A stretch of 64,000 nucleotides of DNA from assembly GCA_025361065.1 (NCBI GenBank), contig JANYAY010000147.1, positions 2,166 to 66,165 on the forward strand. Direction: 5' to 3'. Positions 4,294 to 45,605 of this stretch are shown here, piece after piece. Position 1 is the first letter of the stretch. Each line of letters starts with the position of its first letter. Both the position numbers and the translations under genes were made by a program. The stretch is from Deltaproteobacteria bacterium (GTDB lineage: Bacteria > Desulfobacterota > Syntrophia > Syntrophales > Smithellaceae). Under the pieces are notes generated by a model. The model did no database searches, was not told the DNA's origin, and worked only from the letters and a program-made list of their open reading frames with translations.

Positions 4294-4322
4294 GCTGAGG
4301 ACTGAAGCGAAGCCCGGCGAAT

Positions 4323-4490
4323 GAGACTGTGTCGTAATGACCATTTCGTCATTCCGTACAAGCGAAGCGCGATGAAGAGCCTGCCCCGTACTCGATACGG
4401 GGGAATCCAGTATTTTCAGTAAGTTCTAGATACCGGCTTTCGCCGGTATGACTGCTTTTATAGCGCTTCTTGCTATTACGACACAGTCTC
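4323..4490 (-). mobile_element. 168-bp MITE-like element (type A) with perfect 16-bp terminal inverted repeats
   Basis: TIRs are gagactgtgtcgtaat (4323-4338) and attacgacacagtctc (4475-4490), flanked by GAAT/GAAT. It has an internal hairpin ataccggc-tttc-gccggtat (4430-4449). A homologous copy lies at 45194-45605. Confidence 0.75.
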
Positions 4491-4531
4491 GAATGCCGCG
4501 GCTGCGGTCTTATTTCCTGAAATGAGAAAAA

Positions 4532-5656
4532 ATGAAAGTCGCCTACTGGTACAACAACAAAGATATTCGGCTGGAAGAAGTGCCGATCCCTAACCCTGGC
4601 CCGCAGGAGATGCTGGTCAAGGTTATTTCCTGCGGCATCTGCGGCAGCGATATCGTTGAATGGTACCGGCTCCCCAGAGCTCCGCTGGTGCAAGGACATG
4701 AAATTGGCGCCCAAATTGTAAAAATTGGTAATTGTGTAAAAAAGTATAAACCGGGCGACCGGGTTTTTATCGCCCCTAAAGTACCCTGCGGGAAATGTTT
4801 TTATTGCCGGGGCGGGCACTATCCCCAATGCTCAGAGGTTAAGGAGCGGCTCCCCGGCGGTTTTGCCGAATATATCCTGGTTCCGGAAATACTCGTAGAA
4901 AACGGCACCTATCTTCTGCCTGAGCAGATCACCTATGATCAAAGCACCTTCATTGAACCCCTGGCCTGTGTTGTCCGGGCACAGCGACTGGCGGGTGTAA
5001 ACCCCGTTAGAGATAACAGGGGCTTGGGTAATACAACCGGCGGCATTGAGCCACCACAATCTGAAATTTCCGGATCAAACCGGCACCGGGAGTCAGGAAC
5101 ACTCTCTAACGGGGTAAAAAAGAGTGACTCTGTGCTGGTGATCGGGTGCGGCATGTCGGGACTACTTCATGTAAAACTCGCCCGGGCGAAAGGGTGGAAG
5201 GTAATCGCCACCGACATCAACAAAAGAAAACTGGAATTTGCCGCGCAGCTGGGCGCAGACATCATCATTGATGCAACTGATAACGTTGCGGGTCAATTGG
5301 TTGCGGGAAACGGCAAAAAAGCCGACGTTGTATTTTTATGCTCCTCGGCAGATTCGGCAGTACAGCAGGCCTGGAACTGCGTAGATAAGGGCGGCGTGAT
5401 CGTCTTGTTTACGGTCCCCGAACCGGACAAGAAGGTTGTCGTGCCCATTAATGATTTCTGGATGAAAGAAATTACCGTTCTTACTTCTTATTACTGTGGG
5501 CCTCCCGATATTACTGAAGCGATGAAATTATTAGAATCCGGCAATATCATCGTGGATGACATGATCACACACCGCCTGCCGCTCGACGACATTGCTCAAG
5601 GTTTTAAATTGGTTACCGATGGCCGGGAATCAATCAAAGTAATTATAAAACCTTAA
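4532..5656 (+). CDS. Zn-dependent alcohol dehydrogenase (MDR family) carrying a 39-aa in-frame insertion
   Basis: Motifs CGICGSD, GHEIG and VIGCGMSGL (GxGxxG). The insertion NPVRDN...SNGV sits just before the Rossmann fold. Confidence 0.85.
   Translation: MKVAYWYNNKDIRLEEVPIPNPGPQEMLVKVISCGICGSDIVEWYRLPRAPLVQGHEIGAQIVKIGNCVKKYKPGDRVFIAPKVPCGKCFYCRGGHYPQCSEVKERLPGGFAEYILVPEILVENGTYLLPEQITYDQSTFIEPLACVVRAQRLAGVNPVRDNRGLGNTTGGIEPPQSEISGSNRHRESGTLSNGVKKSDSVLVIGCGMSGLLHVKLARAKGWKVIATDINKRKLEFAAQLGADIIIDATDNVAGQLVAGNGKKADVVFLCSSADSAVQQAWNCVDKGGVIVLFTVPEPDKKVVVPINDFWMKEITVLTSYYCGPPDITEAMKLLESGNIIVDDMITHRLPLDDIAQGFKLVTDGRESIKVIIKP
5002..5114 (+). mobile_element. 113-bp TIR element inserted in frame inside the ADH gene
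   Basis: Perfect 12-bp inverted termini ccccgttagaga (5002-5013) and tctctaacgggg (5103-5114), flanked by direct TAAA (4998-5001 and 5115-5118). 113+4 = 117 nt = 39 codons with no stop. Confidence 0.6.
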
Positions 5657-45049: not shown

Positions 45050-45193
45050 GGCAAGTCTCCTTCAGGTTTGTTTTTGTTTTGGCAAACAAAATATACCATT
45101 TAAGATTGAGACTTGCCCTTGTATTTTTTTATCATAAGGTCTGTCTTAGGCCGGAATCTAGGAAGTGCATGATAATACTGGATACCGGCCTGT

Positions 45194-45605
45194 GAGACTG
45201 TGTCGCAATTGCAAAAGCGCTATCAATAGTGTCATGCCGATGAATAACCTAAAGGTCACGCGAATCGGCATCCAGACATCGTCCCGGCGAAAGAGACTGT
45301 GTCGCAATAGGATAAATTGCTATTTCGTGTCCTCCGCTGGCGGAGGTGTCACGTAGTGACGGAGGTGGACTAAGTAGTACCAATGTGTAACTTATTCATA
45401 TTACAGCCACTTAAAAAACATCCACCCCCTTGCCCCCGCCAGCGGGGGACATTACGAATAGACGGCAATCAGCATCTGTCAATTGCGACACAGTCTCGAA
45501 AGCCGGGAACCAGAATATGTACTGAAAATACTGGATTCCCCCGTATCAAGTACGGGGCAGGCTCTTCGTCGCGCTTCGCTTGCACGGAATAACGAAACGG
45601 TCTCC
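45194..45605 (+). mobile_element. type-A MITE copy carrying a nested type-B element
   Basis: With 45293-45501 removed, it aligns end to end with the reverse complement of 4323-4490. The left TIR gagactgtgtcgcaat is intact and the right end is degenerate. Confidence 0.7.
45293..45497 (+). mobile_element. 205-bp type-B MITE with perfect 16-bp TIRs, nested in the type-A copy
   Basis: TIRs gagactgtgtcgcaat and attgcgacacagtctc, flanked by GAAA/GAAA inside the split hairpin cccggc...gccggg. Confidence 0.75.

Follow-up and report, generated by a model that had tools for sequence, protein, structure and literature searches.

A probable miniature inverted-repeat transposon read in frame within a zinc-dependent dehydrogenase gene of a Smithellaceae bacterium

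Introduction

Why would the gene of an otherwise ordinary zinc-dependent dehydrogenase contain 39 codons that many of its close orthologues do without, and why would these codons lie between perfect inverted repeats? The question is raised by a stretch of 64,000 nucleotides (assembly GCA_025361065.1, contig JANYAY010000147.1, positions 2,166 to 66,165 of the forward strand) from a deltaproteobacterium of the Smithellaceae. This whole stretch is called the window in what follows, and its coordinates are used throughout. Selfish DNA residing in frame within protein genes is best known from Rickettsia. An earlier note on the window had proposed that the extra codons are a palindromic-ended selfish repeat tolerated as a surface loop or, alternatively, a recent insertion that has silently crippled the enzyme. 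The answer we propose, with a probability of about 0.8, is that a non-autonomous miniature inverted-repeat transposon entered the dehydrogenase gene and has since been inherited and read through in frame as a loop of the protein.

Results

An insertion with the anatomy of a transposable element

The features of the locus are the following.

4532..5656, plus strand: zinc-dependent medium-chain dehydrogenase (sorbitol/threonine-dehydrogenase-like), 374 aa, intact open reading frame (ORF), from the ORF list and Pfam
4998..5001: left TAAA of the 4-bp target-site duplication, read directly; it fits the family-wide T-N-N-A
5000..5116, plus strand: 39 extra codons, N157-V195 (NPVRDNRGLGNTTGGIEPPQSEISGSNRHRESGTLSNGV), from the alignment with insert-bearing and insert-free orthologues
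5002..5114, minus strand: 113-bp miniature inverted-repeat element, the family reference strand being antisense to the dehydrogenase; covariance model, full length 1-113
5002..5013: terminal inverted repeat CCCCGTTAGAGA, encoding P-V-R-D in the gene frame; repeat search
5103..5114: terminal inverted repeat TCTCTAACGGGG, encoding S-N-G in the gene frame; repeat search
5115..5118: right copy of the target-site duplication, TAAA, read directly

The inverted repeat can be extended to 13 nt, ACCCCGTTAGAGA (5001-5013) being 100% complementary to TCTCTAACGGGGT (5103-5115) with 89 nt between them. When up to one mismatch is allowed, the 12-mer end occurs at just these two sites in the 64 kb, for a chance expectation of 0.20. 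The folding energy of the insert segment is -44.9 kcal/mol, as compared with -28.5 +/- 3.6 for its shuffles (z = -4.6). The 113 nt of the element and the 4 nt of one duplication add up to 117 nt, that is 39 codons; the reading frame is therefore kept and the segment would be read as a loop of 39 residues. The insert-free orthologues (335-346 residues) read ...RAQRLAGVKKGQSVLVIGCG... without a gap, and two empty sites found as DNA are GCC GGC GTA AAA and GCC GGA GTT CAG. The anatomy given in the earlier note is thereby borne out as a whole: the orthologue alignment places the 39 extra residues between the catalytic domain and the Rossmann fold, the 113-bp unit does end in perfect 12-bp inverted repeats and stands between two direct TAAA copies, the frame runs through it without a stop, leaving the dehydrogenase ORF intact, and its removal gives the ungapped junction of the insert-free orthologues.

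The host protein associates a GroES-like catalytic domain with a Rossmann domain, has the GxGxxG motif and the zinc ligands, and thus shows what is expected of a medium-chain dehydrogenase/reductase. It is matched by the Pfam families ADH_N (4.7e-23) and ADH_zinc_N (4.2e-26), whereas its NCBIfam matches all fall under the equivalog cut-offs, each of them being broken into two stretches by the insert. Its closest named relatives are from Smithellaceae and Syntrophaceae, and the nearest solved structures are the sorbitol dehydrogenases 3qe3 and 1pl6. Invariant features of the dehydrogenase alignment include GCGMSG, GHE and the Cys clusters, and the window protein keeps every invariant residue of the family. 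The HMMER alignment to sorbitol dehydrogenase is interrupted between query residues 157 and 194, at the turn that joins a helix of the catalytic domain (EPL...RRAGV) to the first Rossmann strand; the insert would form a surface loop at this domain junction.

An ORF of 71 codons also runs across the element on the minus strand (window 4939-5154, ...TPLESVPDSRCRFDPEISDCGGSMPPVVLPKPLLSLTGF...). It exists because the element is open in one frame per strand, and it is probably not a gene.

A repeat family shared by distant bacterial phyla

A pattern composed of the two ends, CCCCGTTAGAGA followed after 70-100 nt by TCTRACRGRGT, was searched in one genome per species (596 Gb). At least 120 stretches match it, for about 4 expected by chance by simple arithmetic on these 596 Gb. 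The matches listed come from Omnitrophota, many Patescibacteria lineages, Planctomycetota, Elusimicrobiota and Nitrospirota, and further from Deltaproteobacteria/Desulfobacterota, Ratteibacteria, WOR-3, Bacteroidota and others, at least 10 phyla in all. Several copies per metagenome-assembled genome (MAG) are frequent, 3-4 among the matches listed (e.g. JAFDFZ01, JAGVOQ01, JAZDOX01), and near-identical copies are found on separate contigs of one genome, as in L033, L041, L076 and L119.

The flanks were analysed for 130 extracted copies, 124 of them outside the dehydrogenase. A 4-bp direct duplication is perfect in 78/124 of the latter and in 0 of the shifted control. Its first position is T in 118 of the 130 copies and its fourth is A in 104/130, the commonest forms being TTTA/TAAA, TTCA/TGAA and TTGA/TCAA, with G favoured before and C after the target (G-TNNA-C). 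Such duplications around copies in unrelated loci identify the family as real transposon relics and not chance palindromes. Tandem elements sharing one duplication are frequent, and head-to-tail arrangements with a single shared 4-bp duplication (of the form TTGA-element-TTGA-element-TTGA) are seen at L058:6099-6402, L053:6072-6289, L093:3369-3617 and L082:1156-1392. They suggest insertion beside an existing end, which is consistent with the G-TNNA-C preference. The length range is continuous: it starts with hairpins of about 27-32 nt that have duplications and extends beyond 180 nt, the family as a whole covering about 27 to about 250 bp. Minimal forms of 29-32 nt, scarcely more than both ends (CCCCGTTAGAGAAC-GAAG-TTCTCTAACGGGG), occur at L084:2080-2111, L013:3405-3435 and L091:5284-5312. 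Some of the minimal forms have perfect duplications, so the ends alone may suffice for mobility.

Most copies are intergenic. When they are clustered by their interiors, 31 form one family (family 1), the window copy grouping with 30 others; the remainder are mostly unique, many with a GC-rich hairpin beside one end. The family-1 consensus reads CCCCGTTAGAGA-AA-GCCACCGAC-TTTA-GTCGGTGG ... GCTGACGGTGG-TTTAATG-CCACCGTCAGC ... CCGTTAGAGAAC-GAAG-TTCTCTAACGGGG, and two internal hairpins are kept in it by compensatory changes (13/33 predicted pairs). A covariance model built from 21 family-1 copies, none from the dehydrogenase, recovers the window element at 5002-5114 on the minus strand with 32.6 bits (E=2.9e-6) and nothing significant in the rest of the window, where the next best match has 13.3 bits (E=0.27). 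Canonical copies score 100-128 bits and the dehydrogenase copies from 60 down to 25 bits. On its reverse strand the consensus translates into PVRELRSLTVCADGGIKPPSAS...AFSNGV (PVRE..ADGGIKPPSAS..AFSNGV), which matches the insert peptide PVRDN...GGIKPTQSETS...AFSNGV and, to judge from this match, is plainly its ancestor.

Further copies of the termini, for which the earlier note had asked, are thus carried by many genomes, including an intergenic copy in a Smithellaceae MAG (L087; duplication TGAA/TGAA; 73.6 bits by the family-1 model). Rfam scans of the window region and of 11 loci with canonical copies matched no family. A BLAST of the consensus against plasmid and phage collections gave no match, a scan of viral contigs for the element gave 0 matches, and a full-text literature search for the end sequence returned chance primer matches only.

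The insertion is shared by diverged orthologues

A homologous insert, identical in site and orientation, is present in 13 proteins (77-81% identical overall) and in 2 further metagenome loci, which makes at least 15 diverged Smithellaceae-like orthologues. The orthologues that bear the segment also have the inverted ends in their DNA, and the lineage-specific loop devoid of such ends that the earlier note had envisaged is not what they show. Indels and ends were compared in nine DNA sequences found through protein similarity alone. The length differences within the insert are of 9, 12 or 57 nt, every one a multiple of three, with deletions of about 57 nt in L005:2138-3241, of 12 nt in L003:796-1914 and of 9 nt at the left junction in L130, all of which keep the frame; the loop would thus tolerate varied lengths. 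The left end CCCCGTTAGAGA is identical in 8/8 orthologous copies, the most decayed included, and this identity extends to three synonymous third positions, while the right end TCTCTAACGGGG is identical in 7/9. A perfect TAAA/TAAA duplication occurs only in the window and in the orthologous locus L133, most orthologous copies combining a left TTCA with a right TAAA.

Mean identity of the flanks by codon position is 0.85 / 0.91 / 0.56, from which it follows that these genes diverged under purifying selection with the insert already in place. At the protein level the insert is 68% identical and the flanks 83%, and the two correlate (rho 0.45). The shared site, the frame-keeping indels, the selection on the flanks and the shared decayed duplication together favour one old, translated and tolerated insertion, and exclude a recent crippling event. 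A scan for the core motif of the dehydrogenase copies found dehydrogenase loci only, in a collection that samples these organisms thinly. The dehydrogenase copies lack covariation except in the terminal stem (covariation term +3.18, 1/34 pairs), their internal hairpins having decayed.

Ends compatible with translation, and other genes bearing copies in frame

The ends of the element close few reading frames. On the left, a single frame meets a stop (CCC-CGT-TAG) and the remaining two read PVR(D/E) and (T)PLE; on the right, C-TAA closes one frame and the remaining two read SNGV or SLTG. An element length of 2 modulo 3 makes the element and its duplication keep the frame, and this length class comprises 23/27 family-1 copies vs 41/97 others (p=0.04). 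The family-1 consensus is open in one frame per strand, and ten indel-free copies have 18/20 of such frames still open vs 9.3 +/- 2.3 under random substitution of the consensus; this excess is no more than suggestive, because the copies share ancestry and hairpin constraints. Besides the dehydrogenase, copies lie in frame in the following genes.

L123:5332-5436, in an Elusimicrobiota single-cell genome: leucyl-tRNA synthetase, between the CxxC motifs
L114:5896-6006: glycyl-tRNA synthetase beta (GlyS)
L101:3618-3728: UvrD-type helicase
L100: PMT_2 membrane protein
L015: NHL-repeat protein
Omnitrophota: two giant ORFs

The first three belong to Elusimicrobiota and Omnitrophota genomes, and there the insert splits the Pfam matches of its host. 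When 1.84 billion representative proteins were searched exhaustively with a profile of the PVRE...FSNGV peptide, 59 matches were obtained, including a radical-SAM enzyme and Ogt-like, LysM-TPR, PilZ and multi-domain HAD/PfkB proteins. Many of the 59 are "hypothetical proteins" of 45-75 residues, which are translated intergenic copies. A word-indexed protein search with the insert peptide returned short ORFs only, the embedded inserts being missed. Judging from these intact frames, the copies would be translated as part of their host proteins. In the public databases, the entries P0121-P0132 (45-71 residues, PVRE...FSNGV) are likewise translations of intergenic copies and represent annotation artefacts.

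A lead to the mobilising enzyme

Autonomous copies were sought as paired ends 0.3-5 kb apart and as pairs separated by 0.9-3 kb with ORFs of at least 250 aa between them, and also by clustering of ORFs across loci and by Pfam scans of the enclosed or adjacent ORFs. Housekeeping genes were all that these ORFs comprised, save one IS1380 transposase whose far end falls outside the locus. This transposase came from the scan of four ORFs beside unpaired ends (PF13701, E=1.6e-38; L117:6543-8000, in a Nitrospirota MAG), and the homologues of its product bear the name IS1380 family transposase. About 300 bp downstream of TCCCGTTAGAGAAAGAATCCTCTAGCGGGA (L117:6245-6275), a short palindrome similar to the element ends, lies the transposase gene. 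Since the far end of this putative insertion sequence is outside the locus, the link with IS1380 stays a lead. No IS1380 relatives were present in the viral contigs searched.

A second repeat family in the window

An unrelated second miniature element fills the spacer upstream of the dehydrogenase (window 4319-4494). Its inverted repeat, GAGACTGTGTCGTAAT (4323-4338 and 4475-4490), is perfect over 16 bp and has GAAT on either side. The spacer to the upstream LsrF-like aldolase gene measures 238 nt here, while at several orthologous loci the genes overlap or are about 90-110 nt apart. A compound or nested cluster of this second family (ends GAGACTGTGTCGCAAT) occupies window 45175-45602, in an intergenic region of 835 nt; one of its stretches, of 83 nt, has 94% identity to window 4339-4421.

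Discussion

The model we propose begins with a non-autonomous cut-and-paste DNA transposon with the ends CCCCGTTAGAGA, which would have entered the TAAA of the codons GTA-AAA (Val-Lys), in the loop that leads from the catalytic-domain helix to the first Rossmann strand, the TAAA being duplicated on insertion. The product would be a mostly polar loop of 39 residues, xPVRD...SNGV. This would most likely have happened as a single event in the ancestor of a Smithellaceae-like group, and would have been followed by inheritance with decay of the interior but with the frame kept, and by loss or allele exchange in many lineages. The tolerance of the insert would be due to its position in a surface loop, and the best candidate for the mobilising enzyme would be a transposase of the IS1380 family, which is related to piggyBac. 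As for the selfish, palindromic-ended and in-frame nature that the earlier note attributed to the repeat, it gains support from the existence of a multi-copy family with target duplications and of in-frame copies in unrelated genes.

Several observations weigh against this model. The covariance model scan gave no second copy in the 64-kb window, and the search of about 0.8 Mb of loci yielded no autonomous element having these ends. The exposure of the loop is deduced from homology, the AlphaFold2 model computed with 70 close homologues being poor throughout (mean pLDDT, the predicted local distance difference test, of 52.6, and below 30 within the insert), too poor for placing the loop. A neighbour-joining tree of the flanks scatters the insert-bearing orthologues, which are not monophyletic in it and often stand beside insert-free sisters. 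Four-fold sites are invariant at 4/7 in the insert vs 5/89 in the flanks (p=3e-4), all four of the invariant ones falling in codons of the ends or of the duplication, and the inserts of L001 and L133 are about 95% identical for flanks of about 78% (the lineage concerned being L001/P0010, together with P0004 at the protein level). An insert more conserved than the neutral sites of its host is not what simple vertical neutral decay predicts. These misfits could possibly reflect repeated precise loss, either by seamless excision or by slippage between the copies of an 8-bp direct repeat, GGNGTAAA, which arises from the GGGG end of the element and the target. They might also come from exchange of the insert between alleles or its correction from other genomic copies, or from selection acting on the ends as DNA or as RNA.

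Could an active element have inserted recurrently and independently at the same dehydrogenase hot spot in different species, in a homing-like manner? The patchy spread on the flank tree, the conservation of synonymous sites in the insert and notably in its ends, the L001-L133 pair, and the perfect duplications of the window and L133 are all on the side of this explanation, as are the preference of the family for G-TNNA-C and its frequent insertion beside its own ends; nor does the shared orientation speak against it, since only one orientation is open in this frame. We nevertheless consider it improbable. The TTCA left/TAAA right of most copies is a shared derived state, the dehydrogenase copies are closer to each other than to any copy elsewhere and are alone matched by the core-motif scan, and the identities of insert and flanks correlate. 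Furthermore, the window copy, despite its perfect duplication, has one of the three most decayed interiors among the dehydrogenase copies (32.6 bits, with L004 at 27.5 and L003 at 25.3). The constancy of the left end down to its synonymous positions, and of four-fold sites in the end and duplication codons, also fits a segment kept for a role as nucleic acid, be it an mRNA stem tuning translation between the domains, an antisense RNA or an excision-competent site, the peptide being incidental. The right-end changes of L003 and L004, which are partly G-U compatible on the sense strand, and the two internal hairpins with compensatory changes found family-wide, point the same way. It is a role in which we place little confidence, given that the dehydrogenase copies lack covariation beyond the terminal stem and have decayed internal hairpins, that no Rfam family matches, and that many close orthologues do well without the segment.

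The silent and recent inactivation that the earlier note held out as its alternative, which would make the gene a pseudogene in the making, finds an argument in the perfect inverted ends and perfect duplication of the window copy, but it is hardly credible beside an insert common to at least 14 diverged orthologues, an interior far from the family consensus, indels that are all frame-preserving, flanks far more conserved at codon positions 1 and 2 than at 3, and the retention of all invariant family residues. Even less can be said for an ordinary lineage-specific loop whose ends are palindromic by chance and which owes nothing to a mobile element: the peptide is indeed conserved among orthologues, yet at least 120 elements that have target duplications and lie in unrelated genomes and loci are bounded by the same ends, the covariance model matches the window copy, and the translated consensus matches the insert peptide, so that the probability of this reading is practically nil. 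Going beyond the insertion model, one may speculate that the CCCCGTTAGAGA elements constitute a broad-host-range superfamily of piggyBac/IS1380 type fitted to coding sequence by ends free of stops in two frames, frame-preserving lengths and avoidance of stops on both strands, and that they act as reversible peptide modules, seamlessly excisable, in essential proteins across many phyla, with ends under nucleotide-level selection because excision competence or an RNA role matters. We regard this extension as unlikely.

Three other identities were tried and rejected. In an integron attC site the GTT/AAC triplets face inward, whereas here they face outward, and a target duplication is present. An intein or intron does not fit, 39 residues being too short for an intein, splice motifs being absent and the frame-preserving indels arguing for translation. 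CRISPR repeats are direct, and the arms here are inverted.

The element family extends the in-frame behaviour known from Rickettsia to a separate repeat family, distributed across free-living and uncultured bacteria of many phyla and lodged in genes as important as those of aminoacyl-tRNA synthetases and a repair helicase. For genome annotation, it accounts for dozens of "hypothetical proteins" of 45-75 residues as translated intergenic copies, and for host domain models split in two. For protein evolution, it amounts to a natural experiment on which loops bear some 39 extra residues. The same 12-nt end in distant phyla would imply that the transposase is very widely shared or that transfer between phyla is frequent, and the T-N-N-A duplication opens a route to the study of piggyBac-like chemistry in bacteria.

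Comparison with known systems

The Rickettsia palindromic elements RPE-1 to RPE-10 are repeats of about 100-150 bp that lie in frame in unrelated and often essential genes, are translated and are tolerated by the fold (PMC10969869). The resemblance to them suggested in the earlier note holds for behaviour, the elements described here being in frame in the dehydrogenase, leucyl-tRNA synthetase, GlyS, UvrD, PMT_2, NHL-repeat and radical-SAM genes, where they would be read through. It does not hold for hosts and anatomy: the hosts here belong to many phyla and are free-living or uncultured, and the matches listed include no Rickettsia; the elements, which are mostly intergenic, show a T-N-N-A duplication of 4 bp and clear inverted ends of 12 bp. 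The likeness would be one of behaviour only, and relatedness in sequence is not expected.

By its small size (113 bp), its lack of a transposase gene, its terminal inverted repeats (TIRs) and its duplication of fixed length, the window element resembles the classical bacterial MITEs (miniature transposable elements with inverted repeats). Among these, Correia elements duplicate TA, not T-N-N-A. The classical MITEs (Correia/NEMIS, ERIC, the QMITE of Coxiella and those of cyanobacteria) are small and non-coding, with TIRs, a target duplication, many copies, stable hairpins and occasional in-frame fusions to ORFs (PMC10969869, PMC5896051). Whereas each of them is limited to a genus or a family, the CCCCGTTAGAGA-type end is identical over at least 10 phyla, and the lengths here form a continuum that starts at about 27 nt and exceeds 180 nt, the interiors being largely unrelated.

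The duplication and the ends bring to mind another group. In the ISfinder table, the IS1380 family has duplications of 4-5 bp and ends starting with CC. The elements described here fit this description by their CCCC ends and their 4-bp duplication, which has T as its first base and A as its fourth. Among prokaryotes, IS1380 is the counterpart of piggyBac (PMC5718144), whose target is TTAA, with recognition of the first T and the last A, and whose excision is seamless (PMC7351741). In contrast with piggyBac, the two middle bases of the duplication are free here, and membership in the IS1380/piggyBac group is a lead. On the other hand, repetitive extragenic palindromic (REP) sequences have a GTAG or CGTC head, produce no target duplication and are extragenic (PMC3733652). 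Together with the bacterial interspersed mosaic elements (BIMEs), both being moved by REP-associated tyrosine transposases (RAYTs), they are also short GC-rich palindromes abundant between genes, and the present family has minimal forms of about 30 nt; a REP identity was rejected because the present elements make a duplication and have CCCC at the start of their ends, without any GTAG/CGTC head.

In conclusion, the element of the Smithellaceae dehydrogenase gene is, by its anatomy, an ordinary miniature inverted-repeat element, and three things make it stand out: a 12-nt end identical over at least 10 phyla, a duplication of the form T-N-N-A, and the variety of essential genes hosting such elements in frame.

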